Origin: an uncultured Alphaproteobacteria bacterium
GTDB lineage: Bacteria > Pseudomonadota > Alphaproteobacteria > Micropepsales > Micropepsaceae
Direction: 5' to 3'
Assembly (NCBI GenBank): GCA_903862715.1
Contig: CAIOYY010000003.1
Coordinates: 1,687-65,686 of the forward strand
Length of the DNA: 64,000 nt
The notes under the pieces: generated by a model
What the model was told of the DNA's origin: nothing
The model's database searches: none
What the model saw: only the letters and a program-made list of their open reading frames with translations
Shown: positions 3,748 through 43,854 of the stretch, piece after piece
Layout of the letters: the number at the start of each line of letters is the position of its first letter
Numbering within the stretch: the first letter of the stretch is position 1
Made by a program: the position numbers and the translations under genes

Positions 3748-3765
3748 GACATGGAGTATGCGTTT

Positions 3766-5345: not shown

Positions 5346-5373
5346 CACGGGGGAATGCGCGAAGGGCTTCCGC

Positions 5374-6591: not shown

Positions 6592-6792
6592 GCCGATTAC
6601 TCCTATGCCACGGGCAGATTTTTGGGGGTGGCTTAGACCCCCTTGCCCCCCTTGGCAAGAAGAACGAACACTTCGTGCGTTGTGCGCACGAAAGCCCCTA
6701 GCCCCAGCGGATTTCAGCCATTAGTGTGCCGCTCCCACCGCCCCGCGACACGCGGGGAAGAACGCCAACATGACGCCCGGGATGGAACGCCA

Positions 6793-15633: not shown

Positions 15634-15821
15634 GGGGGCTCCTATTCTCGTTCTTCCGGGCGTCGTCGTTGGGACCGAAACTATCGCCTAATCGCCCTTC
15701 CCGGCAATGTTGATCTGGCAACTGCTTATGAGCCTAGGTTTAAGCAAAACGTCCCCCGAAAGACAACGGCGCCACCGGAGAGGAGGCGCCGTTTCAACGG
15801 AAAAAGAAGGCTTGAAAGAGG

Positions 15822-17045: not shown

Positions 17046-17139
17046 GAAAACCTCCTGTAACGGACGAAACCGAAATGTTGATGTCGCAACATAATCGGAA
17101 CGCCGCGGAGGCTCCTTGATCTGGATCAAGCCCGGATAT

Positions 17140-18701: not shown

Positions 18702-18850
18702 TGGCTGTCCCTCCGTTTGACCGGGGCTTTGCTAGCTTGACGTTCGTTGAGGGTCAATCGCGGAGGGCCTTCGGTCCGCGATCGCCAGCTTTGCCTTAGG
18801 GTGCCCGCCTGATAGGCTGAACGCCTAGAACGGCACGCCACAAGATTTGA

Positions 18851-20442: not shown

Positions 20443-21867
20443 CTAGCCGGTGCTTAATGCCTTCGGGGGTGCGGAGAGCGAGGGGACCGGTGCACCATCG
20501 GCGCCGGCCACGAGCTCGGCGATAAAGCGCTCCCCCCAATTCTCGATGTCGTTCTCTTTCAGAGCAGAGAACAATTCGGCATGCCGGGACCGGCGTTCGG
20601 CCAGCGGCATGGCGAGCGCGCGCGCAATGGCGGTGCCGACCGATTCCGCATCATAGGGATTGACCAGCAGCGCCGCCTTCAGTTCCGTGGCGGCGCCTGC
20701 GAAGCGCGACAGAATGAGAACGCCGGGATCCTCCTCATCCTGCGCCGCGACATATTCCTTGGCGACGAGATTCATGCCGTCGCGCAAAGGTGTCACGAGA
20801 GCGGCGCGCGCGAGGCGATAGAAACCGGCGAGCGCAAGGCGGCTATAGGTGCGGTTGATATAGCGGACAGGGAGCCATGACACGTCGCCATAACGGGCAT
20901 TGATTTCGCCCGCCAGCCCATCGATCCGGTGTTTCATGTCGATATATTCGGGAAGATCGTCGCGGCTTTGGGGCGTGATCTGAAGGAACGTGACATGCCC
21001 GCGCCATTCCTCATGCGCCCGCAGGAAATGCTCGAACCCTTCGAGGCGGTGCGTGATGCCCTTGGTGTAATCGAGGCGGTCTACGCCGATCATCAAGACG
21101 CCTGGAATGGTGGCGCGTATGCGCTGCACCAGATCGGAATCGGCAGCGCCGGCGGCGCGTTTGCGAAATTCCTCCGTGGCAATTCCGACCGGGAACACGC
21201 CGACGCGCATGCCTTGCGTGCGGCCCGCGCGCGGCGCCGGCCATTGATTGGGGAAGCCGCATTCGGCGGCGAGATAGCGGGAGAAATTGGCGGAATCGGC
21301 GTGGGTCTGAAACCCGACAAGATCATATTCCGCCAGCGCCGGAATGAGTTTTTCGTGATGGGACAACGCCGTCAGAATATCGGGCGGCGGCATCGGAATA
21401 TGCAGGAAGAAGCCGATGCGGTTCGCGTGACCGCGCAGGCGCAGCGCGCGCGCCAGCGGAATGTAATGATAGTCATGCACCCAGATGATATCGTCGGGCT
21501 TCAGGACCTTGCTCAGTTCATCCGCGAATTGTTCATTGACGCGGATATAGCCGGAGAGATCGCGGCGCGAAAATTCCGCGAGATCAAGACGGTAATGCAG
21601 GATCGGCCATAGAACGCGATTGGCGAAGCCGCTGTAATATTCCTGATAGTCCTCTTCGGAGAGATCGGTGACGATATAGGTCGTATTGCCGCTGCGAAGG
21701 GTTTTGGTTTCCACCTCCGCCTTCGGCTTGACGCCGCCGCTCCATCCGAACCAGGTGACATCACGCCGGTTCAGCGTCGCTTTCAGCGCTACTTCAAGCC
21801 CTCCCGCGCGCCGCGCCGCGCCTGTCGGAACAGACACGCGGTTCGATACTATGAAGAGCCGTGCCAA
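20443..21867 (-). CDS. otsA: Trehalose-6-phosphate synthase (GT20)
   Basis: [13 protein letters not shown]...WFGWSGG...[12 protein letters not shown]...[11 protein letters not shown]...[17 protein letters not shown] favour TTG at 21867, which is preceded by GGGAGGA and gives 474 aa. The track ORF extends to an ATG at 22062 and there is another ATG at 21951. Confidence 0.85.
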
Positions 21868-23690
21868 TAGCGGTCCTCCCAGCTGCGGGACAGGCGTTTC
21901 GCGGTCAGGATCAATCCCGCCAGTGAATAGGTTTGAGGGAAGTTGCCCCATAGAGCGCCCGTTGCGGGATGAACGTCTTCGGACAGAAGACCGAAATGAT
22001 TGCGATAGCGCAGCGCATCGCGGAATAGCTCCCGGGCTTCCTCTTTCCGTCCCTGGCGCCAACGCGCATCGGCTAGCCAGAAACGGCAGACGAGAAAGGC
22101 CGTTTCCGGAAAGCCGAAATCATCGGCGGCGGCATAGCGCATGACGTGATGACCCTGCATCAGATGGCGCTCCACGGCATCGACCGTTGCGGTGAAGCGT
22201 GGATCATTCGCCTCGACCAGCCCAAGATCGGCAAGCAGCAGCACGCTGGCGTCAAGATCGGCCGAACCGAATGCACCGGTGAACGCATTCACGGACGGAT
22301 TCCACGCTTGTTCGAGAATCGTCGCCTGCAATGTGTCGGAAATCTTCTGCCAGTGCGCGGCGCGCGCGTGGAGATTGAGATGTCGCGCGATCGCCGCGAC
22401 GCGGTTGCAGCCTGCCCAGCACATGGCCGCCGAATAGGTATGAACTTCCGCCCGCCCGCGATATTCCCAGATTCCCGCATCGGGTTTGAGCGCAAGCTCT
22501 GCGGCCTTCTGCCCGAGTTTTTCGAGGAGCGGAAACAGCGCCGGACTGGCGGGACTGGGCAGGCGCTGATCGAAGAACATCGGCATCGCTGCAAGAATGA
22601 CGCTGCCATAGGCATCGTGCTGAACCTGATCGGCCGCCGCATTGCCGACGCGCACCGGGCCGTGGCCATTATATCCCGAAAGATTCTCGGCCACGCGCTC
22701 GGTCAATGCGTCATTCGGTACGATGCCATAGACGGGACGCAAATCCTTCGCGTCACCCGCGGCGATGCTGAGCACAAAGCCGATGAATTCCTCCATCGTC
22801 TTGGTCGCGCCCAGATGATTGAGCGCCTGTACGACGAAAAACGCGTCGCACAACCAGCAGGCGCGATAATCCCAGTTGCGGCCCGAATGTGGGCTTTCGG
22901 GAATCGAAGTGGTGAGCGCGGCGACGACCGCGCCGGTTTCCTCGAAATTGCACAGCTTCAGCGTGATCGCGGCGCGGATCACCTCTTCCTGCCAGTCATA
23001 GCCGATCGACAGAAAGCGCACCCATTCCAGCCAATAGGCGGTGGTGCGCTCGTTCAGTTCGCGGCAGGCCTTGTGCAGATCGTCGGGAAAGGGTTCGTCG
23101 GCGCCGAACACCAGATGCACGGGTTGCGTCAGAACGAAGGGCGTTTCCTTTTCGATATAGGATAAAGGCGCATCAGTGGTGAGCCGCAAGGTGTGAAACA
23201 GGCCGCCACTTTGGTAGCGCATATGATTAGACCCGCTCTCGCGCCGGGGGAGCGGGTCGCCATAATGGTGGGTAGGGCGAAAGCGCACAGAGATTCGCGG
23301 ATAGCCCGACAGGGGCTCGATGATGCGGATAAGCTGCGGCGGGCGGTAAATGCGCCCGAGATTCTTGTAACGCGGCGCGAAATCGGTAATCCGAACGGAA
23401 GAACCATCGCTCGACGTCATGATGGTGCATACCGTGGCGGTGTTGCGCACATAGGCAGTTTCGATATGGGTGAGGCCATCGAGCACAATATCGGTGAAGC
23501 CTTTTTCCTCATCGCCCGCGAGAAGGCGCGAGAACACCGGATCGCCGTCGAAGCGCGGATAGCACCACCAGACAAGGCGCGCTTTGGTATCGAGCAGCGC
23601 CGCGGTTCGGCCATTTCCGATGACCGCGAGATCGAGCGTTTGGGGGTTTACCGTCCGTGCTCCGCGCGGACGGCGAGAGCGGCAAGCCAT
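21849..23690 (-). CDS. Glycoside hydrolase family 15 (glucoamylase/trehalase-like) protein
   Basis: NPQTLDLAVIGNGRTAALLD...WWCYPRFDGDPVF is a typical GH15 N-terminus. It sits between otsB and otsA and overlaps both neighbours. Confidence 0.75.
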   Translation of the reverse strand: MACRSRRPRGARTVNPQTLDLAVIGNGRTAALLDTKARLVWWCYPRFDGDPVFSRLLAGDEEKGFTDIVLDGLTHIETAYVRNTATVCTIMTSSDGSSVRITDFAPRYKNLGRIYRPPQLIRIIEPLSGYPRISVRFRPTHHYGDPLPRRESGSNHMRYQSGGLFHTLRLTTDAPLSYIEKETPFVLTQPVHLVFGADEPFPDDLHKACRELNERTTAYWLEWVRFLSIGYDWQEEVIRAAITLKLCNFEETGAVVAALTTSIPESPHSGRNWDYRACWLCDAFFVVQALNHLGATKTMEEFIGFVLSIAAGDAKDLRPVYGIVPNDALTERVAENLSGYNGHGPVRVGNAAADQVQHDAYGSVILAAMPMFFDQRLPSPASPALFPLLEKLGQKAAELALKPDAGIWEYRGRAEVHTYSAAMCWAGCNRVAAIARHLNLHARAAHWQKISDTLQATILEQAWNPSVNAFTGAFGSADLDASVLLLADLGLVEANDPRFTATVDAVERHLMQGHHVMRYAAADDFGFPETAFLVCRFWLADARWRQGRKEEARELFRDALRYRNHFGLLSEDVHPATGALWGNFPQTYSLAGLILTAKRLSRSWEDRYWHGSS

Positions 23691-24448
23691 GTACGTACCT
23701 CGCCCGGTCCCGCGAGCATATGATCCGCACCGGCCATCGGACGCCCCACGGAAATGCCGATCCCGGAAAATTCGCCGAGCGCCGCAAACGCCGCTTCATC
23801 GGTTACATCATCGCCGATGAAAACGGGGCGACGTCCCCGAAACGGCGTCGTGCCGAGCAGCGTGCGCAGCGCCCGTCCCTTGTCGATCCCCACCGGTTTT
23901 ACTTCGACGACGCCTTTGCCTTCCAGCAGGCCGATGCCTTCACCCGCAGCTTCCGCGCAAATTTCATGGGCGCGGGCACGGAGCGCCGGGCCTTCCGCCG
24001 GCGCGGAACGGTAATGAAGCGCGACAGAAAATATTTTGTCTTCGACAATGACACCCGGATGCGCTTCGCCCAGACGTTTAAGCCGCGCGCGTAAATTCGG
24101 CGACAGGGGCTCAGCGTAAAGCGACCGCATGCTCTCATTCGGGCTTTCTTCGGTCCGCGCGTCTAGTGAAAGCCGGACCTCCGCCCCGTGACAGCCGACG
24201 ACGAAAAGAGCGAGATGGGGAAAGAGATGATCGATAGTGGACAAGGAACGCCCGCTGATAAGGGCGACCGCGCCGCCGAAGCCCCTCTGTAGACGCGCAA
24301 GGACGGCGTGAAGTTCCGCAGGAACAATCACCTCATCCGGATTTTCGGCGATATCGAGCAATGTTCCATCGATATCGAGGAGAAGGGCGCAGGAGGCGGG
24401 ATCGATTGAAAGCGATTCAACGCCTTGAGAGGATTCCAACAAAGACAT
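23648..24448 (-). CDS. otsB: Trehalose-6-phosphate phosphatase (HAD-IIB)
   Basis: HAD motif I LLLDIDGTLLD, ALISGRS, and C-terminal FIGDDVTDE. Confidence 0.8.
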   Translation of the reverse strand: MSLLESSQGVESLSIDPASCALLLDIDGTLLDIAENPDEVIVPAELHAVLARLQRGFGGAVALISGRSLSTIDHLFPHLALFVVGCHGAEVRLSLDARTEESPNESMRSLYAEPLSPNLRARLKRLGEAHPGVIVEDKIFSVALHYRSAPAEGPALRARAHEICAEAAGEGIGLLEGKGVVEVKPVGIDKGRALRTLLGTTPFRGRRPVFIGDDVTDEAAFAALGEFSGIGISVGRPMAGADHMLAGPGEVRTWLAALAVRAEHGR

Positions 24449-25355: not shown

Positions 25356-26222
25356 ATGGACCAGAGACTGATCGACCTGCACCATGATTATGTGCATCAC
25401 CATTTCGACCGCCGCAAATTTCTTGAACAGGCAGGACGGATTGTCGGCAGCGCGGGCGCGGCGGCGGCGCTTCTGCCGCTGCTCGACAGCAATAACGCCA
25501 ATGCGCAGACGATTGCCGAAACCGACAACCGCATCACCACCGAATGGGTGACGTTTGAGGGCGTGACGGGCGAGGTGAAAGCCTATCTGGCAAAACCGTC
25601 AGGCGCGGGAGAGCATCCGGGCGTCGTGATCGTGCACGAGATCGGCGGCGTCAGCCCGCATCAGCAGGATATCGCGCGCAGGCTCGCGGTCGCGGGCTTT
25701 GTCGCGCTGGGTGTGGACTTTCTATCGCCCGCAGGCGGCACGCCCGCACCGGGCGAAGGCAATGGCGCGGAACGCGCCCGTACGCTCGATCCCGTGCAGA
25801 CGGTCGAGAACGGCGTTGCCGCCGTCGCCTATTTGCGCGCCCGCGACGACACCACCGACAAGATCGGCGCGGTGGGCTTCTGCTGGGGCGGACGCGTGAC
25901 GCAGCAGCTTTCGGTGAACGATCCTACGCTGAACGCCGTCGTGGTGTTTTACGGCCAGCCTCCGCATCCTTCCGAAGCCCCGCGCGTGAACGCTCCGATT
26001 CTGATGAATTACGCCGATGTCATGCTCGACATGAACAATACCGGCGAAGTTATTCTCTATCGCGAAGAACTCGAGCGGCTGGGCAAGCCTTTCCAGTTTT
26101 ATATGTATGAAGGCGCGCAGCACGGCTTCAACAACGACACCAATCAGGAGCGTTACAATCAGGCGGCGGCGGAGCTGGCCTGGGGCCGCACCATCGACTG
26201 GTTCAAGGAATATCTGGCGTAG
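25356..26222 (+). CDS. Dienelactone hydrolase family protein with twin-arginine signal
   Basis: FDRRKFLEQAGRIVGSAGAAAALLP...ANAQT (Tat-type signal). VIVHEIGGV, GAVGFCWGG (Cys nucleophile context), YEGAQHGF. Confidence 0.75.
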   Translation: MDQRLIDLHHDYVHHHFDRRKFLEQAGRIVGSAGAAAALLPLLDSNNANAQTIAETDNRITTEWVTFEGVTGEVKAYLAKPSGAGEHPGVVIVHEIGGVSPHQQDIARRLAVAGFVALGVDFLSPAGGTPAPGEGNGAERARTLDPVQTVENGVAAVAYLRARDDTTDKIGAVGFCWGGRVTQQLSVNDPTLNAVVVFYGQPPHPSEAPRVNAPILMNYADVMLDMNNTGEVILYREELERLGKPFQFYMYEGAQHGFNNDTNQERYNQAAAELAWGRTIDWFKEYLA

Positions 26223-28049: not shown

Positions 28050-29000
28050 TTACGGCTTGCTGGCCTCTTCCAGGCGCGTTTGCGCGAAATCGCCAAGGTC
28101 GAGCCGTGACGCAATGGAAAAATCGCGCAATTGAGAGATGTTGCTGACGCTCGCAATAGGCGCTGCAATCGTCGGCTGGCGCATCAGCCAGGCGAGCGCC
28201 ACGGCCGACGGCGTGATGCCATAGGCTTTGGCGACGACATCGAGTCCGGCGAGAATGCGAAGCCCGCGCGGGTTCAGATAATTCCCCATGCCGCCGCCAC
28301 GGCGGCTTTTGGCGAAATCCGCTTGCGAGCGGTATTTGCCGGTGAGAAACCCCGAGGCCAGCGCGTAATAGGGAATGACACCGATATTCTCGGCGCGGCA
28401 CAGCGGCTGGAGCTCGCGTTCGAATCCTTCGCGGTCATAGAGATTGTAGCGCGGCTGCAATGTGACGAAGCGTGGAAAGCCCTCCCGATCGGAAATCTCC
28501 AGGGCCTGACGAAGCCGCGCCGCGCTGTAGTTCGACGCGCCGATCGCGCGCACCTTTCCGGCGGCGACGAGTTCGGCAAACGTCTCCAGCGTTTCCTCGA
28601 GCGGCGCGAGCGGATCGTCCTTATGGGCCTGATAGAGATCGATGTAATCGGTCTGAAGCCGAGCGAGCGAGGCTTCGACTTCCTGCATGATGTGCGCACG
28701 TGACAGGCCTTTGCCGCGCGCGCCGTGATCCCAGCCGACCTTGGTGGCGACCACGATATCGGCGCGGTTGCCGCGCGCCTTCATCCAGGCGCCGATGATC
28801 GCTTCGGATTCGCCGCCGACATTGCCAGGCGCCCAGTCGGAATAGACATTGGCGGTATCGACAGCGTTGAACCCCGCATCGACAAAGGCATCGAGCAGCG
28901 CGAAGGCTTTATCGCGATCGACCGTCCAGCCGAAGACATTGCCGCCGAACATGATGGGGGCGATGTGAATGCCCGAATTGCCAAGCTCGCGTCGATCCAT
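28050..29000 (-). CDS. Aldo/keto reductase
   Basis: ATG at 29000 (MDRRELGNSGIHIAPIMFGGNVFG). DTANVYS, DLYQAHKDD, IGASNY. The upstream part of track ORF 28050..29330 is non-coding-like. Confidence 0.85.
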   Translation of the reverse strand: MDRRELGNSGIHIAPIMFGGNVFGWTVDRDKAFALLDAFVDAGFNAVDTANVYSDWAPGNVGGESEAIIGAWMKARGNRADIVVATKVGWDHGARGKGLSRAHIMQEVEASLARLQTDYIDLYQAHKDDPLAPLEETLETFAELVAAGKVRAIGASNYSAARLRQALEISDREGFPRFVTLQPRYNLYDREGFERELQPLCRAENIGVIPYYALASGFLTGKYRSQADFAKSRRGGGMGNYLNPRGLRILAGLDVVAKAYGITPSAVALAWLMRQPTIAAPIASVSNISQLRDFSIASRLDLGDFAQTRLEEASKP

Positions 29001-29098
29001 TGCCGTTCCCGCTTTCCCAGCGCATGGGTCATGGCCCACCGCTGACGCGTCGGTTCTAACCCGGCGCGCGCGGCCTGTGTACCCCGTGGTGACGGGCG

Positions 29099-29452
29099 CT
29101 ATTCGCCCTGCAGCAGCGGAATGGAATCGGGATCGGGCGAGGCGGGAATGGTCAGGAGGTAGGCGTAGATATCGGCCGCGTCCCGCGCCGGGAGCACATC
29201 CGCCGAATAGGGCGGCATGACCTGACGCGGCGTACGCAGCTGCAGTTCGAAAGCTTCGAAGGCGAGCGGCGGCGCAATCATCGGCCCTGCGGCGCCACCC
29301 TGTCCGACATAGCCGTGACATTGATAGCAACCGACGGCCACAAAGAGCTGGCCTCCGTGATCAGCATTTCCCGCCGGCGCGGTTTGCGCGGAAGCGGAGC
29401 CGGTGAAAAGCGCGAGCGCGCCGAAGACAATGGAGATCGTGCGAGCGGACAT
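29099..29452 (-). CDS. Monoheme cytochrome c, partner of ThDP enzyme module 1
   Basis: Sec-type signal (ALALFTGSASAQ), CYQCH, Met-ligand context MPPY, C-terminal IYAYLLTIPASPDPDSIPLLQ. It starts 14 nt after the stop of 29467..31389. Confidence 0.8.
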   Translation of the reverse strand: MSARTISIVFGALALFTGSASAQTAPAGNADHGGQLFVAVGCYQCHGYVGQGGAAGPMIAPPLAFEAFELQLRTPRQVMPPYSADVLPARDAADIYAYLLTIPASPDPDSIPLLQGE

Positions 29453-29466
29453 GGGTGGCCCCTGAC

Positions 29467-31389
29467 TTAGCGCGGTTGGGTGACGACATCGACGAGCGCG
29501 GGTTCACCGCGCCGCACGACATCGAGGGCGCGGCGAAGCGCCGGTCCGAGATCGACAGGATTGCTGACCGGGCCTTCGGCAAAGACGCCCATACCCTTCG
29601 CCACCGCCGCGTAATCGATATTGGGCTCGTTGATCGCAGTGCCGATATGCGCGCGGTCGATGCCGCGATTGTGGCGGGCGGCCATGCGCTGGATATGCAT
29701 GGTTTCCTGATGATAGCCGCGATTGTTGTGAATGATCATCAGAATGGGAATCTGATGATGCGCGGCAGTCCAGATGACGCCGGGCTGCATCATGTAGTCG
29801 CCGTCGCCGACAATACCGATGGTCAAACGGCCTAGAGCGCGATTGGCGAGCGCCGCGCCGACGGCGGACGGCGCGTTGTAACCGACGCCAAAACCGCCTG
29901 ATGTACCGAGATAATTGTAATAGTGATTCATCGTCCAAAGCCGGTTCGGCCAATAGCTCTGGAACTGACATTCGGTAGCGATCGTGTATTCGTCGTTTTT
30001 GATCTGATCCCATAGTTCCGCGGCGAGACGTGCGGTGCTGATGGGGCTGGCCTCCCAGGCGCGCGCCGCTTCGACGCGCGTGGCCTCGGCAAGTCCGCTC
30101 GTGGCCATGCGCAGACGTTCGCCGCGCGTGCGGAACGAGGCTTTCGCGCCGCGTTTCACCGCTTCCGTCAGATAGGGCAGCGTGGCTTCGGCGCTGGCCG
30201 AGATTTCAATATCGGCAGCGGCATAACGCTGCGACGCGCCGTAATTTGAACGCTGCGACAGTGTTGTGGTGCCAAGACGCACAACCCGCGTCTGGGGGCG
30301 CAGCCGCGATACGGCATTGCGTTCGACCGTATCGGCGAGGTTGTTGACCATACCGAACAGATCGCGCGCTTCCAGCGCCAGAACGAGATCGGCCGCCCGC
30401 AGGGTCGGGCCCGCGATCTCCGTGTGGTTCAGCGGATGCTTGTTGGGGAAGTTCATGCGCCCGCGCGTGTCGATGACGGGGGCCTGAAGGGCTTCGGCGA
30501 GTTCGACCAGAAGCGGAACCGATTCCATGCTGGTGCCGAAGCGATCGACGACGATCACCGGATTTTCGGCATTGCACAGCATGTCGGCGATTTCCTGCAC
30601 CACGCCGCTGTCGGCACCCACCTTGGTGATACGCCCCATGCGCGGGACATGGAGCTGCTCCATGTGTTCGGGATGCACTGCCTCTTCCTGGTGGTCGGCA
30701 TCGGCAACGAGCAGCGTCGGGCCCGGAGAACCCGTAACGGCGGCCTGATAGCAGCGCGCCGCGGCATTGGAGAAATCGCGCAGCGAGGGCGGTTGTTCGT
30801 CCCATTTGACGAAATCGCGCACCATCTGCGCCTGGTCGATGGAGGCATGGGCGGATTCGGCGCCCGGACGGCGCGTCCATTCGCTGATCGAATTGCCGGC
30901 GATGACATAGACCGGCGTCTGATCGGCAAAGGCGTTATAAATCGCCATCGTCGCGTGCTGCAGGCCCACCACGCCATGCACCAGGGCCGCCATCGGCTTG
31001 CCGGTGATGCGCGCATAGCCGATGCCATAATGCACCGCTGAATCTTCATGCAGCGCGGTCAGAAATTCCGGTTTGGAATTGCCGCCATAATTGATGATCG
31101 ATTCCTGCAGCGAGCGGAATGTCGAGGCAGGGTTCGATGCGATGTATTCGATGTCGAGTGCTTTGAGCACATCGACCATGTGATCGCTGCCGCAGGTATA
31201 GCCCTCGGGAAGCGGCGTCGCTTCGCCGGGAGGATTAACCTCGCCCGCGGCATTCGGCACCGCCGGTACCGATGCGGCCTGCGCCCTGGCGGGGCTGCCA
31301 TTCAATGCGACGGCAGCAACGGCCGGAGCCGCAGCGGCGCCCGCGAGGAACTGACGGCGCTTGATTTTGGACTGGTCGGCTCCCGACAT
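29467..31389 (-). CDS. Thiamine diphosphate-dependent enzyme (ALS/POX/BFD superfamily) with twin-arginine signal, module 1
   Basis: ATG at 31389 preceded by GGAGG. KRRQFLAGAAAAPAVAAVAL...ARAQA. PYR-domain LHEDSAVHYGIGYA. ThDP-Mg motif GDGDYMM..(24)..HNNRGY. Confidence 0.8.
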   Translation of the reverse strand: MSGADQSKIKRRQFLAGAAAAPAVAAVALNGSPARAQAASVPAVPNAAGEVNPPGEATPLPEGYTCGSDHMVDVLKALDIEYIASNPASTFRSLQESIINYGGNSKPEFLTALHEDSAVHYGIGYARITGKPMAALVHGVVGLQHATMAIYNAFADQTPVYVIAGNSISEWTRRPGAESAHASIDQAQMVRDFVKWDEQPPSLRDFSNAAARCYQAAVTGSPGPTLLVADADHQEEAVHPEHMEQLHVPRMGRITKVGADSGVVQEIADMLCNAENPVIVVDRFGTSMESVPLLVELAEALQAPVIDTRGRMNFPNKHPLNHTEIAGPTLRAADLVLALEARDLFGMVNNLADTVERNAVSRLRPQTRVVRLGTTTLSQRSNYGASQRYAAADIEISASAEATLPYLTEAVKRGAKASFRTRGERLRMATSGLAEATRVEAARAWEASPISTARLAAELWDQIKNDEYTIATECQFQSYWPNRLWTMNHYYNYLGTSGGFGVGYNAPSAVGAALANRALGRLTIGIVGDGDYMMQPGVIWTAAHHQIPILMIIHNNRGYHQETMHIQRMAARHNRGIDRAHIGTAINEPNIDYAAVAKGMGVFAEGPVSNPVDLGPALRRALDVVRRGEPALVDVVTQPR

Positions 31390-31521
31390 CGTGACCTCCG
31401 ATAACATCTTTTTGTTTGGACATTATCAGCAGACGGGAGGTGCCAAAAGTCAATTGGCCGCCCCGAAAAACCGGGACGGCCAATGAACGCAGGTCCTATG
31501 AAATCGCAGGCGTGAACAGCG

Positions 31522-31875
31522 TTACTGCAATTGCTGCAACAGCGGTATGGAGGCGGGATCGGGCGTCGCGGGAATGGACTCCAGGTAGGCATGGATGTTC
31601 TGCAATTCCTCGTCCGACAATGTCGCCGGTGTGAAGGGCGGCATGTCGCCCGAAGTCTGGCGGACGAAGGTGCTGAACGCATCAAAGGCGAGCGGCTCGG
31701 GTGCGAGCTTGGGGCCCGTGCCGGCGCCTTGTCCTTCGTAGCCATGGCAGGTGTAACAGCCGAAGCGGACAAAGGCTTCTTCCCCGGCGGCGGCATCCGC
31801 CGCGAAAGCGGAACCGGCGATCAGGATCGGAACCAGAATTGCGGCCGCTCCCGCAAGCAAACGAATCGAACGCAT
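31522..31875 (-). CDS. Monoheme cytochrome c, partner of ThDP enzyme module 2
   Basis: ATG at 31875, 10 nt after the upstream stop, with a GAGGGGA RBS. Signal peptide, CYTCH, MPPF, IHAYLESIPATPDPASIPLLQ. Confidence 0.8.
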   Translation of the reverse strand: MRSIRLLAGAAAILVPILIAGSAFAADAAAGEEAFVRFGCYTCHGYEGQGAGTGPKLAPEPLAFDAFSTFVRQTSGDMPPFTPATLSDEELQNIHAYLESIPATPDPASIPLLQQLQ

Positions 31876-31885
31876 GGTTTTCCCC

Positions 31886-33871
31886 TCAGCGCGGTTGAGT
31901 GATGACATCGACGAGCGCGGGCTCGCCGGCTTTGACGATATCAATGGCACGGCGCAGCGCCGGCGCAAGGTCGTTCGGATTCTCGATCGGACCGATGCCG
32001 GCAACGCCCATGGATTCGGCCAGTTTGGCGTAATCGACATTCGGGTTCTCGATGGTCGTCGCCACCCGCCATGAACCATCGCTCAGGCCGCGCTGACGCC
32101 AGCTCGCCATGCGCTGCAGATGCATGACTTCCTGATGATAGGCGCGGTTATTGTGCATGACGTTGAGCAGCGGAATCTTGTGATGCGCCGCTGTCCACAA
32201 TGCGCCGGGGGCATACATGCAGTCGCCGTCGTTCTGGATGTTGACGACGAGGCGGCCGTGCGGACGATGGGCCAGCGCCGCGCCGACCGCAGCGGGAAGG
32301 CCGTAGCCGATGCCCGCGCCGCCGGGACCGCCGATCCATTGATAATATTTGTCGAAGGTCCAGACACGGTGCGGCCAGTTGCTGATGCTCTGGTCGCGTG
32401 ACACCAGCGCCCAGTCTTCGTTCTTGATCAGCTCCCACAATTCGAAGGAGAGGCGCGCGCCGGAGATCGGGCTGGCATTCCAGGCGCTCGCCGCGGCATC
32501 CGCCGCCACGCGCGAACGCGCGGTGTTATAGGCATCGCGCGCCGCCTGGCCGCGATTGTCGATGCGCGTGCGCGCGGCACCGTCGAGGAGCATGCGCACC
32601 GCCTCGATGAGCGAAGGAAGCGTCGCTTCCGCGTCCGCCGCGATGGCGATATCGACCGGCTGATAGCGCTGGAAGTCCTGATAATTGGCGCGGATATACA
32701 CATCGCCCGTGCCGATGCTGACCATGCGTGTGCCTTCGCGCACAATCGGCCCCTGCTGGGCATGGGCCGTGTCCGAGAAATCATTCACGGTGCCCCAGAA
32801 ATCCGTGAGCTCCATGCCAACGACGACATCGGCGCGGCGGATCGCTGCGGCGCCGCGTGCCGCGAGGTGATGCATGTTCGGGAAGTTCATGCGGCCGCCC
32901 TGATCGACGACCGTCGCCTGCAGAAGTTCGGCGAGTTCCACCATAAGGGCGAGGCCCGCCGGGGTACGCGCGACGCGATCGACGACGAAGACCGGATTTT
33001 CCGCCGCGACGAGCATCGCCGCGGTTTCGCGCACCGCATTCGATTCGCCCTGCGGCGGCGTGGGAAGGGCGACTTTCGGAATCGAGAAGTTTTCGAAATG
33101 TCCCGGCTCCGGAACGCCTTCCTGCAATTCTTCGCCCATCACAATGAGAACCGGCTCATAGGGAGGCGTCATCGAGATGCGATAGGCCCGCACCATGGAT
33201 TCAGAAAAATGCTGCAACGATCCCGGCTGATCGTCCCATTTCGTGAAATCGCGGATCATCGCAGCGGGGTCTTGCGCCGCGTGCGTGGTCGGAACGCCCG
33301 GACGGCGCACATTCGCGTCCATCTCGTTGCCGATCATCATCAGAATCGGCGCGCGGTCGCACCAGGCGTTGTAGACGGCCATCGCGGCGTGCTGCAGACC
33401 GACCGTGCCGTGGCAGAGCGAACCCATCGGCTTCAGCGCCACCTTGAAATAGCCATGCGCCATCGCGGTGCCGGACTCTTCATGCATGGTGGTGAGCAGT
33501 TCGGGCATTCTGTTGCCGCCGTAATTCACAATCGATTCGTGAATGCCGCGGCAGCTGGAGGCCGGATTGGTGACGATATATTCGATATCGAGAGTTTTCA
33601 GGACGTCGACCATATAGTCGGAGCCCGGCTTGCCGTTCTGCGTGCCCGGATAAGCGGGCGCGGATACGGAAGCCGTCGCGACTTCGGCCTGCGCCATTAC
33701 GGTGGAGGGCCGCATCGCGCTGGGCGCTGCGGGCGCGGGCGCACCCGGCGGCAGAATCGCGGACTTGGCTTCCGTGGAGACGACCGCAGCGCCTGCGACG
33801 GCGACGCCCGCCATGAATTTGCGCCGGTCCACCTTCGTTACGGCCTGCTTCGATTTCGACTTATCCGTCAT
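31886..33871 (-). CDS. ThDP-dependent enzyme with twin-arginine signal, module 2
   Basis: ATG at 33871 (MTDKSKSKQAVTKVDRRKFMAGVAVAGAAV). TMHEESGTAMAHGYF. NDGDCMY..HNNRAYHQE. Confidence 0.8.
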   Translation of the reverse strand: MTDKSKSKQAVTKVDRRKFMAGVAVAGAAVVSTEAKSAILPPGAPAPAAPSAMRPSTVMAQAEVATASVSAPAYPGTQNGKPGSDYMVDVLKTLDIEYIVTNPASSCRGIHESIVNYGGNRMPELLTTMHEESGTAMAHGYFKVALKPMGSLCHGTVGLQHAAMAVYNAWCDRAPILMMIGNEMDANVRRPGVPTTHAAQDPAAMIRDFTKWDDQPGSLQHFSESMVRAYRISMTPPYEPVLIVMGEELQEGVPEPGHFENFSIPKVALPTPPQGESNAVRETAAMLVAAENPVFVVDRVARTPAGLALMVELAELLQATVVDQGGRMNFPNMHHLAARGAAAIRRADVVVGMELTDFWGTVNDFSDTAHAQQGPIVREGTRMVSIGTGDVYIRANYQDFQRYQPVDIAIAADAEATLPSLIEAVRMLLDGAARTRIDNRGQAARDAYNTARSRVAADAAASAWNASPISGARLSFELWELIKNEDWALVSRDQSISNWPHRVWTFDKYYQWIGGPGGAGIGYGLPAAVGAALAHRPHGRLVVNIQNDGDCMYAPGALWTAAHHKIPLLNVMHNNRAYHQEVMHLQRMASWRQRGLSDGSWRVATTIENPNVDYAKLAESMGVAGIGPIENPNDLAPALRRAIDIVKAGEPALVDVITQPR

Positions 33872-34048
33872 TATCCATCTCCCGAATCTTTTCGAGATCT
33901 TTCGCCACGCAATGCCCCTGAATGCTATAGCCAAGCCCCGAGACGGCCCGTTCCCTATGAGTTTGGGCGCTTTATTGGAGCAAAGCCTAGCAGCGCTTCA
34001 CCCGGTCGGCCAGATCACGGCCATTTATTTTACGCGCGTGAACGATCC

Positions 34049-34414
34049 TTAATCAGAAAAGACGTCCTGCAGCAGCGGCAGGGTTTCCGGCGCCGGAGGC
34101 TCCGGAATGGATTGCAGATAGGCATAGATTTTTTCGAGATCGGCATCCGGAACGATGCGCGCCGTGAAGGGCGGCATGTCGCCGGTGGAATTGCGCACAA
34201 AGGTCGAGAAGGCTTCGTAAGACAAAGCGGTGTGCGCAATCTGCGGTCCGTCGCGACCGCCCTGACCGAGATACGCATGACAGCCCCAGCAGCCGGAACG
34301 GCTATAGACGGCCGCGCCATCCTCGGCCGCCGCATCGGCAGCCTGTGCGGCGCCCGCGAAGAACAGCGAGGCAAGAAGCGCGGATACAAAACCCGGAAGT
34401 GTTTTACGGTGCAT
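34049..34414 (-). CDS. Monoheme cytochrome c, partner of ThDP enzyme module 3
   Basis: ATG at 34414 with GAGGAA 6 nt upstream. Signal peptide, CWGCH, MPPF, IYAYLQSIPEPPAPETLPLLQ. Confidence 0.8.
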   Translation of the reverse strand: MHRKTLPGFVSALLASLFFAGAAQAADAAAEDGAAVYSRSGCWGCHAYLGQGGRDGPQIAHTALSYEAFSTFVRNSTGDMPPFTARIVPDADLEKIYAYLQSIPEPPAPETLPLLQDVFSD

Positions 34415-34445
34415 GACCATTTCCTCGAAATCCTGACGGGCTGGT

Positions 34446-36425
34446 TTAGCGGGGCTGTGCGACGACATCGATGACGACGGGCTGCCCCGACTTCACGACT
34501 TCAATGCCACGACGGATCGCGGCGGCGAGATCGTTCGGGTCCTCGATCGGACCGATGCCTTCGACGCCCATGCCGCGCGCGAGATCGGAGAAGCTGAGAT
34601 TGGGATTGGTCAGCACCGTACCGATCAGCGCGTTCTGAATCCCGCGCTGCCGCCAGCTCGCCATACGCTGCATATGCATGACTTCCTGATGATAGGCGCG
34701 GTTGTTGTAGATGATGTTGAGCATCGGAATGGAGTGATGCGCCGCCGTCCACAGCGAGCCCGGCACATACATGAAGTCGCCGTCATTCTGTAAATTCACG
34801 ACGAGGCGGCCATGCGCGCGATGCGCCAGCGCCGCGCCCACAGCGGCAGGAAGACCATAGCCGATGCCCTGCCCGCCTGGTCCGCCGATGAACTGATGGA
34901 ATTGTTCGATGGCCCATAGACGATGCGGCCAGAAGGACATGCTCTGGTCGCGCGAAACGAGCGCCCAGTCTTCGTTCTTTATTTGCGCCCATAATTCGGC
35001 GGTCAGACGCGAGGATGAGATCGGGCGCGCATTCCAGGCGTTGGCGGCGGCCTGCTGCAATGTGCGTTCGCGGCCTGCGGTGAAGGCGCGCATCGAATCC
35101 TCGCCGCGTTGCGCGATACCTGCGCGGCGCGCCTGCGGGATCGCCATTCTGACGGCCTCGATGAGCGAGGGCAGCGTGGTTTCGGCGTCCGCCGCGATGG
35201 CGATATCGACCGGCTGATAGCGCTGGAAGTCCTGAAAATTGGCGCGGATATAAAGATCGGAAACGCCAAGGCTGATCAGTTTCGTGCCTTCGCGGACAAT
35301 GGGCGCCCGCGTCTGTTCGGCATTGTCCATGAAGTCGTTGACGGTGCCCCAGTAATCCATGAGTTCGATGCCGAGCACGACATCGGCGCGGCCCACTGCG
35401 GGGCCGCCCATCTGGTAGAGATGATGCGTGTTGGGGAAGTTCATCCGCCCCATGCGATCGACGACCGGCGCGTTCAGCGCTTCGGCGAGTTCGATCATAT
35501 ATTGCACGCCTGCCGGTGTGCGCGCGGCGCGGTCGACGACGATGACCGGGTATTCGGCATTGGCGAGAAGCTGCGCCGCTTCACGCACCGCGTTCAGATC
35601 GCCCTGCGGGAAAGACGGCATCGAGAGACGCGGAATCGTCAGCGGACGCTCCGAATGTATTTCGTGTTCCTGAAGATGCTCCTCCATAGAGATGAGCACC
35701 GGTTCGGTCGGCGGCGTCAGCGCGATCTTGTAAGCGCGCACCATGGATTCGGCGAAATGCTGCAGCGAGCCCGGCTGGTCGTCCCATTTGGTGAAGTCGC
35801 GCACCATCGCGGCAGGATCCTGCACCGTGTGCAGGGTCGGCGTACCGGGAACGCGCGTATCGGCGTCGGTATTGTTGCCGACCATCATGAAAACCGGCAC
35901 GCGGTCGCACCACGCATTGTAGATCGCCATCGACGCATGCATCAGGCCGACCGTGCCGTGACACAGCGCGATGAGCGGCTTGCCCGATACTTTGAAATAG
36001 CCGTGGCCCATCGCCGTCGCCGCTTCTTCATGCGTCGCGGTGAGAAGCTCCGGCATCGCATTGCCGCCATAGGTGACAAAGGATTCGTGGATGCCGCGGC
36101 AGGAGGAAGCCGGATTGGTGATGACATATTCGACGCCGAGCGTTTTCACGACATCGACCATGAAGTCGGAACCCGGTTTGCCATTGACCGTTCCGGGCGA
36201 ACCATCGCTGCCGGCATCGCGCACCGGCCCGGTTTCTGCCGCCAGCATTTGCGCGCTGGGCCGAAGCGCCATGGGCGGCGCGTTCTGCGTGGCGCCCGGC
36301 AGGATCGCCGCCGATGCGCCTTCGCCCACGCTTACCGCCGCGCCCGCTACGGCAACGCCTTTGAGGAAATTGCGCCGATCCACATTGCGCGCGTTCGAAC
36401 GAACTGAATCCGTTTTTCTCGACAT
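34446..36425 (-). CDS. ThDP-dependent enzyme with twin-arginine signal, module 3
   Basis: MSRKTDSVRSNARNVDRRNFLKGVAVAGAAV. ATHEEAATAMGHGYF. NDGDFMY..YNNRAYHQE. Close paralogue of module 2. Confidence 0.8.
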   Translation of the reverse strand: MSRKTDSVRSNARNVDRRNFLKGVAVAGAAVSVGEGASAAILPGATQNAPPMALRPSAQMLAAETGPVRDAGSDGSPGTVNGKPGSDFMVDVVKTLGVEYVITNPASSCRGIHESFVTYGGNAMPELLTATHEEAATAMGHGYFKVSGKPLIALCHGTVGLMHASMAIYNAWCDRVPVFMMVGNNTDADTRVPGTPTLHTVQDPAAMVRDFTKWDDQPGSLQHFAESMVRAYKIALTPPTEPVLISMEEHLQEHEIHSERPLTIPRLSMPSFPQGDLNAVREAAQLLANAEYPVIVVDRAARTPAGVQYMIELAEALNAPVVDRMGRMNFPNTHHLYQMGGPAVGRADVVLGIELMDYWGTVNDFMDNAEQTRAPIVREGTKLISLGVSDLYIRANFQDFQRYQPVDIAIAADAETTLPSLIEAVRMAIPQARRAGIAQRGEDSMRAFTAGRERTLQQAAANAWNARPISSSRLTAELWAQIKNEDWALVSRDQSMSFWPHRLWAIEQFHQFIGGPGGQGIGYGLPAAVGAALAHRAHGRLVVNLQNDGDFMYVPGSLWTAAHHSIPMLNIIYNNRAYHQEVMHMQRMASWRQRGIQNALIGTVLTNPNLSFSDLARGMGVEGIGPIEDPNDLAAAIRRGIEVVKSGQPVVIDVVAQPR

Positions 36426-36594
36426 GGTGCCCCGTCCTGGTGATCGCCTCCGGCAGCTTCAGCCGCTCTGAAGGATTCTGAAATCCCGATGCCAAGCTAA
36501 CAGCGCAAAAGCCATGCGGCTAGGCATGGGTTTCGTGCTGCACTGCGAAGGGGCGCACCCTTATCGCCGCACCTTCTGTCGGCCTCAGCAATCT

Positions 36595-37616
36595 TTAGCG
36601 AATCGGGGGCGCATAAAGGAGCCCGCCTTCGGTCCAGAGCCTGTTCGGGCCGCGCGGGAGATGGGCGGCATCGGCCGCACCGAGATGGCGATCAAAAATC
36701 TCGCCATAATTGCCGGTGGCTTTGACGATGGCCGAAGTCCAGTCGGGCGCAAGGCCCGACGCGATTGGCGGCTCCTGAAAGAAGGAAAGGATCGCGGGGT
36801 CGGTGCTCGCCCGCAGGGCATCCACATTTGCGGCGGAGATGCCGAGCGCCTCAGCATTGACGAGCGCGTGGACAGCCCAGTCCACCACCGCATCGAATTC
36901 ATCGTCGCCCTTACGCAGCAGCGGCGCGAGCGGCTCTTCCTCATATGCCCGGGAAGAATTCTGTAGGCCGTCGCATCCTCTGCGTGCCGGATCACGGCGC
37001 TCGCCAGTTCGGCGTAATCGGCGGTGACCGCATCGCATTGGCCATCGAAGAATCGCGCTTCGGATTCTGCGCGCGTCTGCGTGCCGATGCCGTGAAAGGT
37101 GAGACCGTTCGACTCAAAATAGTGCTGTAACGGCGGGAAGAAATCGGCATAGACGTCGGAGGAAACACAGATGGTCTTGCCCGAAAGATCGGCAAAATTC
37201 TCCACGTGCAAATCGGCGCGGACCAGAAAGGTCTGGCCGTTGTAAAGAAGGACGGGACCGAAATGGACATTGCCACCGACATCGCGGCGGAAGGATTGCG
37301 TGAGGCCGCGGATCACCAGATCGATCTCGTCGTTTTCGAGAAAGAGGGCGAGCGTTTCGGCGGGGGCGAACACGACATTCGGAGCGCCGAAAATCCCCGC
37401 CGCGATGGCGCGGCAGATGTCAGGCTCGAAGCCCTGAAAGGTACCGTCATCCTGCACCTCGGACATGCCGGGTTCCGCGATGGCAACGCCGCAATTCAGA
37501 TGCCCCCGCGCCTTTATGGCGTCGAGCCGCGGCCCCGCATGCGCCGCAGTGGCGATCACGCAGGGACCTAAGACGGCAAGCGCCCTAATTATTGACATAA
37601 AGGGGGTGAGACTCAT
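36595..37616 (-). pseudogene. AapJ/BztA-like general amino-acid ABC transporter substrate-binding protein, frame broken by a 1-nt deletion
   Basis: The N-terminal frame (signal MSIIRALAVLGPCVIATAAHA...AYRILPG) and the C-terminal frame (AYEEEPLAPLLRKGDDEFDAVVDW...GNYGEIFDRHLG...GLLYAPPIR) join only if one base is added in the CCCGGG run at 36948-36953. Confidence 0.75.
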
Positions 37617-37781
37617 CGCGGCCCGTTCGTCGATATTAAAATGTCGAAAGACTGTATGCTTTACGCTCATGACCAGACCGGATTCTAGCACGAGAATGAT
37701 CCGCCGGGACCGCGTCGGAAAAAAGGCGCCGGGAAAGGCGCCGGTATCGCGTATTCGTGCGCACCCACCCCAGGCCGCGCC

Positions 37782-39209
37782 ATGACCCGGATGCGGCGCA
37801 GGGACTTGCTCGCGGCGGGCGGCGCGGTGGCATTGTTTGCACCAGCCCTTGCGCGCGGCCAGATACCGGGGGGCGCGGAAACCATTCTTATTATCGGCGC
37901 GGGGCTCGCCGGCCTTACGGCGGCGCTGCGCCTGCGAGAGACTGGACGGCGCGTGATCGTGCTGGAGGGCCGAAGCGTTGCGGGCGGACGTGTGCGCACG
38001 ATCCGCGATCCTTTCGACAACGGGCTCTATGGCGAGGCGGGCGCCGCGCGCATTTCCGACGTTCACCATTTCGTTCTGCACTGGCTGAATCGCTTTGGCC
38101 TGAACGCCGTTCCGTTTTCCCCGCCGGAGGGACGCACGATCTTCGTCAACGGCGCGGTCAGCGCGTTCTCTGACGATCCGCGCGCGGGCGCGCTACTGGA
38201 ACCGGATTTGCGCGAAGACGAACGTGGGTTTCTGCCCAGCGAACTCGCCAATCATTATCTCGAAGGCCTTCCTGAGAATTTGCAGAGCACGGATGTCGAC
38301 GCCGAAATGCTTGCGGGATGGGCCGATTTCGACGGGGTGACCTGGCCCCAATGGCTGAAAAAACGCGGCGCATCGGACGCGGCAGTGCGGCTTCTGACGC
38401 TGGGCGCGGATTCGAGCGACATCTCGGCGCTTTATGTTTTACGGCAAATTTTCATGCATCGCGCGGGACGCGCCTATTTGAAAATCGAAGGCGGCATGGA
38501 CCGCCTGCCGCGCGCGCTGGCCGATGAACTTGGTGATGATGTCCGCTATGATTGCTGCGTGACGGCGATGGAGCAGACGCGCGACGGCGTCAGCGTTTCC
38601 TACCGCGAGAATGGCGAGACGAAAATTGCTTCGGGCGCGCGCCTCCTGATAACCTTGCCCTTCACGATATTGCGCGACATGGACATTACGCCCGCACTCT
38701 CGCCCGAGAAACGCGCCATCATTTCCGCCATGCCCTACCGGTCGTCCATCCGTTTTCTGTTGCAGAGCGATACAGCGTTCTGGCGGATGCGCGGGCTTTC
38801 GGGCGCCGCGCGCACCAACGCGCCTTGCGAGATATGGGATGCCAGCTTCGGCCAGCTCAGCGTTCATGGCCTGTTGTCGGTGACCGCTGGTGGGCGCGCC
38901 GACATGCGGGCGCGATTCGCCGAAATGGACGAACAGGCCCAGTTGGCGCTGGGAAGCGATATGGCGGAAGCGGCGTTTCCGGGGTTCAAGAGCCACTATC
39001 AAAAGGGCTTCACGCAAAATTGGACCGACGACCTATGGTCTAAAGGGGCTTTCGCGGTATCTCATCCGGGCCAGATGACGAGATGGGGTGAAAAGGCCTG
39101 GACGCCGGAGGGACGCATCCACTTTGCGGGCGAGCATGTTTCGCCGTGGCCGGGATGGATGGAAGGAGCGTTATGGTCTGCCGAAAGAGCAGTACAAGAG
39201 TTACTCTAA
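37782..39209 (+). CDS. Flavin-containing amine oxidase family protein with twin-arginine signal
   Basis: MTRMRRRDLLAAGGAVALFAPALARG. Dinucleotide fold IIGAGLAGLTAALRL...VLEGRSVAGGRV. The C-terminal HFAGEHVSPWPGWMEGA is typical of the amine oxidase family. Confidence 0.8.
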   Translation: MTRMRRRDLLAAGGAVALFAPALARGQIPGGAETILIIGAGLAGLTAALRLRETGRRVIVLEGRSVAGGRVRTIRDPFDNGLYGEAGAARISDVHHFVLHWLNRFGLNAVPFSPPEGRTIFVNGAVSAFSDDPRAGALLEPDLREDERGFLPSELANHYLEGLPENLQSTDVDAEMLAGWADFDGVTWPQWLKKRGASDAAVRLLTLGADSSDISALYVLRQIFMHRAGRAYLKIEGGMDRLPRALADELGDDVRYDCCVTAMEQTRDGVSVSYRENGETKIASGARLLITLPFTILRDMDITPALSPEKRAIISAMPYRSSIRFLLQSDTAFWRMRGLSGAARTNAPCEIWDASFGQLSVHGLLSVTAGGRADMRARFAEMDEQAQLALGSDMAEAAFPGFKSHYQKGFTQNWTDDLWSKGAFAVSHPGQMTRWGEKAWTPEGRIHFAGEHVSPWPGWMEGALWSAERAVQELL

Positions 39210-43670: not shown

Positions 43671-43854
43671 ATTTTTTTTGCGCGCGCCCGCGGGTGTTTC
43701 TCCCGCGCGGTGCATTCCATTGATGTTTTTGATTATCGGGGAGGCGGCCTAGTTTGGCCGTCTCGTCGCTTTGGCGTAGCCTTTTGGAAGGGCGCTGCGG
43801 CCTTGCAAACGAGTGGACGGATGCTATGACGTCCCATTGCAGGAAGAGATTGTG

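Follow-up and report, generated by a model that had tools for sequence, protein, structure and literature searches.

Can a thiamine diphosphate (ThDP) enzyme act in the periplasm and deliver its electrons to a cytochrome c? The question is raised by a locus on the Micropepsaceae contig CAIOYY010000003.1, within a stretch of 64,000 nt (the window). Here six open reading frames (ORFs) on the minus strand, between positions 29099 and 36425, form three modules (34049-36425, 31522-33871 and 29099-31389), each comprising a gene for a ThDP enzyme followed by one for a c-type cytochrome. To our knowledge all the characterised enzymes of the ThDP superfamily are cytoplasmic. Known ThDP oxidoreductases donate electrons to lipoamide, FAD or iron-sulfur (Fe-S) clusters. 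We propose that each module encodes a flavin-free ThDP dehydrogenase exported by twin-arginine translocation (Tat), which would most likely decarboxylate a 2-oxo acid and pass two electrons to its own cytochrome c; we put the probability of this reading at roughly 0.6. The preliminary description of this DNA had suggested oxidative ThDP chemistry with cytochrome c as the acceptor, an interpretation that is supported at the level of genomics. From the anatomy of the modules and its conservation we infer an oxidative function, and likewise export, the redox and physical coupling of the two proteins, the direction of electron flow and the class of substrate.

The features of the three modules, listed in the direction of transcription, are:

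34446-36425, minus strand: ThDP3 (module 3, transcribed first), 659 aa, defined by its ORF and Pfam domains
36303-36425, minus strand: predicted twin-arginine signal peptide of ThDP3, approximately aa 1-41 (MSRKTDSVRSNARNVDRRNFLKGVAVAGAAVSVGEGASAA), from Pfam TAT_signal with a putative cleavage site
34049-34414, minus strand: cyt3, 121 aa, predicted monohaem class I cytochrome with a general secretory (Sec) signal, CWGCH and MPPF, 31 nt past the ThDP3 stop codon
31886-33871, minus strand: ThDP2 (module 2), 661 aa, ThDP enzyme with a predicted Tat signal, ATG at 33871 behind GGGAGA
31522-31875, minus strand: cyt2, 117 aa, predicted monohaem cytochrome with CYTCH and MPPF, 10 nt past the ThDP2 stop codon
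31453-31484, minus strand: terminator-like hairpin between cyt2 and ThDP1, 14-bp stem with 9 G-C pairs and a T-rich tail, a consensus match only
29467-31389, minus strand: ThDP1 (module 1, the divergent paralogue), 640 aa, predicted Tat signal, ATG at 31389 behind GGAGG
29099-29452, minus strand: cyt1, 117 aa, predicted monohaem cytochrome with CYQCH and MPPY, 14 nt past the ThDP1 stop codon

A two-gene unit repeated three times on the minus strand had been described beforehand, and all six ORFs are present as stated there. The large genes are real and encode proteins of 640-661 aa, but two of their start codons have been revised. ThDP2 most likely starts at the ATG at 33871 and not at the TTG of a 682-aa ORF, and ThDP1 most likely starts at the ATG at 31389. 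The cytochrome genes had been given as about 117-121 codons long and 10-31 nt downstream of their partners, matching the gaps of 31, 10 and 14 nt and the lengths of 121, 117 and 117 aa in modules 3, 2 and 1 respectively. A Shine-Dalgarno-like sequence precedes each ThDP gene and each cytochrome gene. The terminator-like hairpin separates module 2 from module 1, which suggests that module 1 is a separate transcription unit; a scan with the sigma-70 consensus, which is uninformative for this organism, gave no promoter match. ThDP2 and ThDP3 are 65% identical and ThDP1 is 46-47.5% identical to either, so that modules 2 and 3 are close and module 1 is divergent, as had been noted. The pairwise identity among the three cytochromes is 41-48%.

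The large proteins and their cofactors

By sequence the large proteins are members of the superfamily of ThDP enzymes that includes acetolactate synthase (ALS), benzoylformate decarboxylase (BFD) and pyruvate oxidase (POX). The Pfam domains TPP_enzyme_N, TPP_enzyme_M and TPP_enzyme_C are matched in all three (E 1e-5 to 5e-26); the TPP_enzyme_M match of ThDP2 scores 25.7, under the cut-off of 30.4, and the domain is homologous by alignment. On alignment with PoxB, Gcl, IlvI and Oxc of Escherichia coli the glutamate of the HE(E/D) sequence falls in the column of the catalytic glutamate (occupied by valine in Gcl), and (G/N)DGD...NN coincides with the ThDP-Mg motif of these enzymes. These hallmarks had been read from the sequence in the preliminary description, and the domain matches and alignments bear them out.

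An alignment of the family was made with 38 sequences, and residue numbers are given here as in ThDP3. R17, R18, E133, H156, D548-G549-D550, N574 and N575 are invariant, so that both the catalytic glutamate and the ThDP-Mg motif are intact throughout. E133 aligns with the glutamate of PoxB, IlvI and Oxc, and with E47 of BFD. H156 aligns with the catalytic His70 of BFD in two independent alignments; the numbering of the BFD sequence used in one of them reproduces S26, E47, H70 and H281. The equivalent of Ser26 is probably S107 in the HMMER alignment and is ambiguous in that made with MAFFT; the column of His281 is not conserved, and the alignment is unreliable there. The AlphaFold2 model of ThDP3 (mean pLDDT 73.6) has the standard fold, with residues 1-81 disordered. 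Foldseek matched this model with a probability of 1.00 to glyoxylate carboligase (GCL), BFD, benzaldehyde lyase (BAL) and acetohydroxyacid synthase (AHAS); these are generic fold matches only, and the model and Foldseek search gave no specific nearest relative.

The N-termini of the large proteins have the features of Tat substrates, from which export by this route is predicted. The conservation of these features was followed in relatives from a genome scan in which each GTDB species was represented once. The scan gave 420 stretches with relatives, of which the best 78 loci, all in metagenome-assembled genomes (MAGs), were analysed; together with the window these make 79 sources, holding 85 genes of the family. 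Of the 85 homologues 83 have the consensus V-(D/N)-R-R-(K/N)-F-L, behind which comes a conserved hydrophobic region rich in alanine and glycine. The consensus sits 31-102 residues ahead of the catalytic core, and the intervening linker is modelled with low confidence. Pfam TAT_signal matches ThDP3 with 23.8 bits (cut-off 22.7) and ThDP1 with 19.9 bits, below the cut-off; no match was reported for ThDP2. The twin-arginine signals that had been described at the head of each protein thus hold up. The position of the start codons relative to the RR motifs was also checked. The motifs lie inside the translated proteins and are conserved as amino acids, with start codons upstream of them that are preceded by Shine-Dalgarno-like sequences.

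The enzymes appear to be flavin-free, judged from the motifs of flavin binders of the same fold. Behind the first strand of their middle domain PoxB, Gcl and IlvI carry a G-x-G sequence (GSG, GGG and GGG respectively), and the ADP-binding Oxc carries G-K-G. At this position the family has VVDR(A/V/F), with D298 and R299 invariant. A deletion of seven residues removes the G(M/L)xG(L/M) segment, the RFDDR-type motif of flavin binders was not found in the family alignment, and the proteins end before the C-terminal membrane-binding extension of PoxB. An Fe-S cluster is unlikely, because the near-invariant cysteines of the family (C109, C155 and C173) are absent from ThDP1. The ThDP proteins of the window contain none of the Pfam domains of pyruvate:ferredoxin oxidoreductase (PFOR), and the family alignment has no conserved pattern of four cysteines.

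The cytochrome partner and its co-inheritance

The three small proteins are predicted to be class I c-type cytochromes. All match Cytochrome_CBB3/Cytochrom_C in Pfam, and each has a Sec-type signal ending in AxA, a single CxxCH, an MPP(F/Y) sequence and the C-terminal tail Y(A)YL..IP..P.P..(I/L)PLLQ, features that, the AxA ending apart, had been listed for them previously. C39, C42, H43 and M77-P78 are invariant among 27 cytochrome sequences. Among PDB domains the haem domain at the C-terminus of actinobacterial QcrC is the nearest. A set of 70 cytochrome homologues are all 111-145 aa in length. A profile search of 1.84 billion proteins gave 2345 representatives at E <= 1e-10, a number that is not the size of the family because this type of cytochrome domain is broader than the ThDP-linked family; the long matches in that search are multi-haem proteins or fusions with cytochrome b.

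The best 78 loci come from Alphaproteobacteria (including Xanthobacteraceae, Pseudolabrys, Micropepsaceae, Beijerinckiaceae and Rhodospirillaceae), from Acidobacteriota and, in a few cases, from Beta- and Gammaproteobacteria. Of the 85 family genes 81 are immediately followed, on the same strand, by a gene for a c-type cytochrome. Most proteobacterial partners are monohaem, and those of Acidobacteriota and Burkholderiales are often dihaem; in Acidobacteriota the partner is sometimes part of a longer fused protein. The RR motif, the catalytic residues and the cytochrome partner are kept in homologues of 50-80% identity from several phyla, and so are not chance features of one sequence. When all the neighbouring ORFs were clustered no other neighbour recurred in more than 17 of the 79 sources, and the ThDP-cytochrome pair is therefore the unit.

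The two genes of a pair have also been duplicated and inherited together, since their identities are correlated and the paralogous modules pair congruently. For 79 pairs the identity matrices of ThDP protein and cytochrome have a Mantel r of 0.78, a value reached in none of 999 permutations. In the window and in two loci that have the whole local synteny in common with it (L001, on a Micropepsaceae chromosome, and L002) the three paralogous modules match congruently for both genes. The Micropepsaceae chromosome carries at least six family genes (loci L001, L004, L011 and L022).

The same pair, complete with the RR signal, is found on plasmids of three cultured strains. In Caballeronia zhejiangensis the ThDP protein WP_244808613.1 and the dihaem cytochrome WP_244808614.1 are encoded 8 nt apart; the others are Burkholderia sp. 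SFA1 and Novosphingobium sp. KACC 22771. The spacing is 8-31 nt when the annotated plasmids of Caballeronia and Burkholderia are taken together with the window. The pairing claimed for the window is conserved in several phyla and in cultured strains and was maintained through duplications. More distant relatives on plasmids of Sinorhizobium and Phyllobacterium have 33-37% identity, over residues 85-658 only. That of Phyllobacterium (~36% identity) has neither signal nor cytochrome, and adjoins a tripartite tricarboxylate (TTT) uptake transporter and an NAD(P) oxidoreductase. The lack of a cytochrome in the sister clade that also lacks the signal fits a switch of both compartment and electron acceptor on moving to the periplasm.

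Proposed chemistry and the alternatives

On the proposed mechanism the large subunit would be loaded with ThDP and Mg and assembled in the cytoplasm, then exported in folded form by Tat, while the small subunit would be exported by Sec and matured by the Ccm system as a class I cytochrome c. In the periplasm the ThDP ylide would attack the carbonyl group of the substrate, most likely a 2-oxo acid, which would be decarboxylated; an aldehyde or alpha-dicarbonyl compound could take its place. The BFD-like catalytic histidine makes a 2-oxo acid with decarboxylation the likeliest substrate. The hydroxyalkyl-ThDP enamine would then be oxidised by the haem of the cognate cytochrome in two one-electron steps, with no relay through flavin or Fe-S. 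Finally the acyl-ThDP would be hydrolysed to the carboxylate, and the reduced cytochrome would feed the respiratory chain. Oxidation of hydroxyethyl-ThDP by one-electron acceptors is well known, with ferricyanide in classical assays and with the Fe-S clusters of PFOR. A stricter form of the proposal makes ThDP the only organic cofactor, its enamine or radical being oxidised directly by a periplasmic c-type haem in what would be a new class of respiratory dehydrogenase; this we advance tentatively, at a little under even odds. The three modules would be old paralogues with different ranges of substrate, and in the lineage of the window they may use 2-oxo acids released by a neighbouring, putatively Tat-exported flavoprotein that resembles L-amino-acid oxidases.

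In function the scheme is close to PoxB, through oxidative decarboxylation, and to PFOR, through oxidation of the enamine at a metal centre, with an architecture as in SorAB, FccAB or NicA2-CycN. The BFD/benzaldehyde lyase group (PDB 4q9d, 1bfd and 2ag0) gives the best sequence matches in the PDB (E 6e-30 to 1e-18, at ~20% identity). It has the same three-domain fold, catalytic glutamate and GDG...NN motif, and likewise lacks the glycine loop of flavin binders, and the family keeps an invariant histidine like His70 of BFD. These enzymes are however cytoplasmic and non-redox, with no cytochrome partner, whereas the family has the Tat signal, the linker of 31-102 residues and several insertions of its own. 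PoxB and LpPOX (EC 1.2.5.1 and 1.2.3.3) offer a parallel in chemistry. As in our proposal, a 2-oxo acid is oxidatively decarboxylated on ThDP with transfer of electrons to an external acceptor and hydrolysis or phosphorolysis of the acyl-ThDP, and the fold and the HEE context of the glutamate are common to the family. PoxB requires FAD and reduces quinone from its place on the cytoplasmic side of the membrane, whereas the family lacks the FAD motifs and the C-terminal membrane peptide and has the Tat signal and cytochrome c partner. In PFOR the ThDP enamine is oxidised by a metal centre in one-electron steps without flavin, which is similar in concept. That enzyme has an unrelated domain architecture with three [4Fe-4S] clusters, and is cytoplasmic and CoA-dependent, while the family has no Fe-S motif.

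The gene arrangement is familiar from SorAB sulfite dehydrogenase, flavocytochrome c FccAB and PchCF, in each of which a Tat-exported enzyme is combined with a Sec-exported cytochrome c; the cofactor is FAD or molybdopterin, never ThDP. NicA2 is a Tat-exported flavin amine 'oxidase' for which the acceptor is the cytochrome c CycN rather than O2 (bioRxiv 10.64898/2026.08.27.747611). The gene logic and presumed electron path of all these pairs are like those of the modules, though ThDP is used by none of them, and with NicA2-CycN a protein classed as an oxidase proved to be a periplasmic dehydrogenase dependent on cytochrome c.

The best curated model for the proteins of the window is NCBIfam PRK08327, 'thiamine pyrophosphate-requiring protein', matched over the full length with 204-249 bits (cut-off 456). 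The BFD model PRK07092 gives 154-171 bits (cut-off 493) and the pyruvate oxidase model PRK08611 gives 66-94 bits (cut-off 742). As they fall short of the score thresholds and motifs that define the BFD, POX and PRK08327 families, the proteins belong to none of them. In public annotations the homologues appear either as 'thiamine pyrophosphate-binding protein' or as 'acetolactate synthase-1/2/3 large subunit'. In view of the Tat signal, the lack of FAD motifs and the presence of a cytochrome partner, the second of these labels is very probably wrong and the error systematic. A ThDP enzyme that is periplasmic or linked to a cytochrome is described in no Pfam or NCBIfam model, PDB structure or source annotation, and no periplasmic, Tat-exported or cytochrome-linked ThDP enzyme was found in the searchable full-text literature, which omits most subscription journals. 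PDB 8RPH was considered as a precedent and rejected, as it is the cytoplasmic carboligase JanthE. The earlier remark that no description of such a system was known therefore stands within these models, structures, annotations and searchable papers, where no homologue with an assigned function was found. So far as comparison of sequences and genomes reaches, none of the refuting conditions set out beforehand was borne out.

A number of observations weigh against the proposed dehydrogenase. The downstream cytochrome gene is absent in 4 of the 85 cases, and there is no ThDP-cytochrome fusion of the Rosetta-stone kind among the cytochrome homologues. Clustering of neighbours over the 78 loci gives neither a universal neighbour nor a consistent clue to the substrate, and the link to the L-amino-acid-oxidase-like gene is found in three syntenic, related genomes only. 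Within the enzyme, the further invariant histidines H163, H199, H334, H563/564, H579 and H584 have no evident role, and the predicted lid of the active site (residues 577-606) has low confidence in the AlphaFold2 model. An unrecognised cofactor or metal site is possible, as the absence of flavin is judged from motifs.

These points bear on four other explanations. The same periplasmic pair might oxidise an aldehyde or alpha-dicarbonyl compound without decarboxylation, as a ThDP-dependent aldehyde:cytochrome c oxidoreductase. The aldehyde-activating enzymes benzaldehyde lyase and formolase are among the nearest structural relatives, genes for an aldo/keto reductase and a VOC (glyoxalase-family) protein follow module 1 in the window, and a pyrroloquinoline quinone (PQQ) dehydrogenase upstream of the family gene in two loci of Acidobacteriota MAGs (L073 and L035) reads as a path from alcohol to aldehyde to acid. 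Set against this, the PQQ linkage occurs in just those 2 of the 78 loci, and the invariant His70-like histidine and probable Ser26-like serine are features of 2-oxo acid decarboxylases, benzaldehyde lyase having alanine at the position of Ser26. Because the clues to the substrate from genomic context are weak and varied, aldehydes and alpha-dicarbonyls remain a live alternative, though an unlikely one. That the enzyme is instead a non-redox decarboxylase, lyase or carboligase of the periplasm, with a cytochrome that serves another process or only stabilises it, seems quite improbable. In its favour, neither redox chemistry nor flavin belongs to the solved relatives closest in sequence (BFD, benzaldehyde lyase and catabolic ALS), the large subunit shows no evident redox cofactor other than ThDP, and the four homologues lacking a cytochrome would be accommodated. 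Yet a partner that is 95% conserved and co-duplicated, that lies close by in the window and on the Caballeronia and Burkholderia plasmids, and that persists across phyla despite a variable context is hard to explain in this way, and we know of no non-redox role of this kind for a c-type cytochrome.

A flavocytochrome resembling pyruvate oxidase, in which FAD or an unrecognised cofactor of the large subunit relays electrons from ThDP to the cytochrome, would explain the HEE context of the catalytic glutamate, which resembles that of PoxB, and perhaps the invariant histidines. Known ThDP oxidases of the same fold use FAD, and the FAD-binding glyoxylate carboligase is among the top Foldseek matches. 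But G-x-G is replaced by Asp-Arg, and the Gly/Met segment, the RFDDR-type motif and the C-terminal extension of PoxB are all missing; the best NCBIfam matches are to decarboxylases without flavin, and the pyruvate oxidase model scores far less (66-94 bits). We judge this arrangement to have a poor chance of being correct. Lastly, the RR motifs might be non-functional, leaving the ThDP proteins in the cytoplasm with an incidental adjacency to the cytochromes, as could be argued from the TAT_signal score of ThDP1 under the cut-off and the missing report for ThDP2. This is very improbable indeed in view of the RR-x-F-L sequence and hydrophobic region in 83 of 85 homologues with the low-confidence linker of 31-102 residues behind them, and of the closest clade without the RR motif, which is also without the cytochrome.

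If the reading as a Tat-exported ThDP dehydrogenase is true, a periplasmic member of the superfamily would add ThDP to the cofactors carried by Tat. An apparently flavin-free transfer from ThDP to cytochrome c would be a new route for electrons and a natural counterpart of the ferricyanide assay, and a 2-oxoacid or aldehyde:cytochrome c oxidoreductase would be a new acceptor class. Among MAGs from soil and freshwater the module is common, in several phyla and with multiple copies within genomes. The class would be a widespread one that has grown by paralogy in soil Alphaproteobacteria and Acidobacteriota, with a previously unrecognised periplasmic oxidation of 2-oxo acids or aldehydes feeding respiration. 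For bioelectrocatalytic decarboxylation or oxidation, the coupling of a soluble ThDP enzyme with a small cytochrome would be attractive. The family is directly testable in the cultured carriers Caballeronia zhejiangensis, Burkholderia sp. SFA1 and Novosphingobium sp. KACC 22771.

Neighbouring genes and other features of the window

The genes adjoining the modules in the window are:

36585-37664, minus strand: SBP_bac_3 periplasmic solute-binding protein (Pfam), 159 nt upstream of ThDP3
37782-39209, plus strand: flavin amine oxidase with an RR signal (MTRMRRRDLLAAGG...), Amino_oxidase 2e-51, divergently transcribed
28050-29006, minus strand: aldo/keto reductase without a signal peptide, Aldo_ket_red 8e-72, 92 nt downstream of cyt1

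All three are syntenic in L001 and L002, the SBP_bac_3 gene in these loci only. The SBP_bac_3 gene is an orphan, with no ABC permease or ATPase genes nearby. The nearest solved relatives of the flavin amine oxidase are L-amino-acid oxidases (PDB, E 1e-45), and it might supply 2-oxo acids in the periplasm. A route there that leads from amino acid through 2-oxo acid to carboxylate is attractive, and rests on three related genomes. By analogy with NicA2-CycN the flavin amine oxidase could itself be a periplasmic cytochrome c-dependent dehydrogenase.

Among the 78 loci the commonest neighbours are a Rieske/LigXa-like oxygenase, a PdxA-family dehydrogenase, luciferase-like proteins and FAD monooxygenases, each in 12-14 loci, and these probably reflect the synteny of lineages. 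On the plasmids of Caballeronia zhejiangensis (p3, locus L084) and Burkholderia sp. SFA1 (p4, locus L087) the pair and its surroundings (locus positions 163-7409) include a Rieske aromatic-ring dioxygenase set, with a PdxA-family dehydrogenase, an FAD oxidoreductase, an MFS transporter and a porin as further neighbours; Rieske/LigXa-like and PdxA-like genes are likewise found near the pair in about 14 MAG loci. In L073 (5749-10736) the gene 72 nt upstream of the ThDP gene encodes a full-length PQQ alcohol/glucose dehydrogenase (611 bits), and the cytochrome is the N-terminal part of a protein of 297 aa. In L035 (5259-9902) a gene for a xylose-isomerase-like TIM barrel intervenes between the PQQ dehydrogenase and the ThDP gene, which is not followed by a cytochrome.

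Elsewhere in the window, a dienelactone hydrolase family protein is encoded at 25356-26222 on the plus strand, with an N-terminus that weakly matches the model of Rieske-type Tat signals; this gene is kept beside the locus in L001 and L002. On the minus strand at 20443-24448 there is a trehalose set, comprising an OtsA-like synthase of family GT20, a GH15/trehalase-like hydrolase and an OtsB-like phosphatase, whose ORFs overlap as listed and need revised start codons. The stretch 14428-19906 contains tandem bicupin ORFs (14428-15633 and 15822-17129) and tandem alpha/beta hydrolases (17140-17916 and 17913-18701), with a type III polyketide synthase (18851-19906) divergent to them, and may be a small cluster for secondary metabolism or aromatic catabolism. 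Finally, a single plus-strand ORF of 768 aa (43813-46119) combines DinB_2 and FGE-sulfatase domains, as in an EgtB-like sulfoxide synthase, with Methyltransf_33, as in an EgtD-like histidine methyltransferase. It looks like a fused protein of ergothioneine biosynthesis, in the order EgtB then EgtD.

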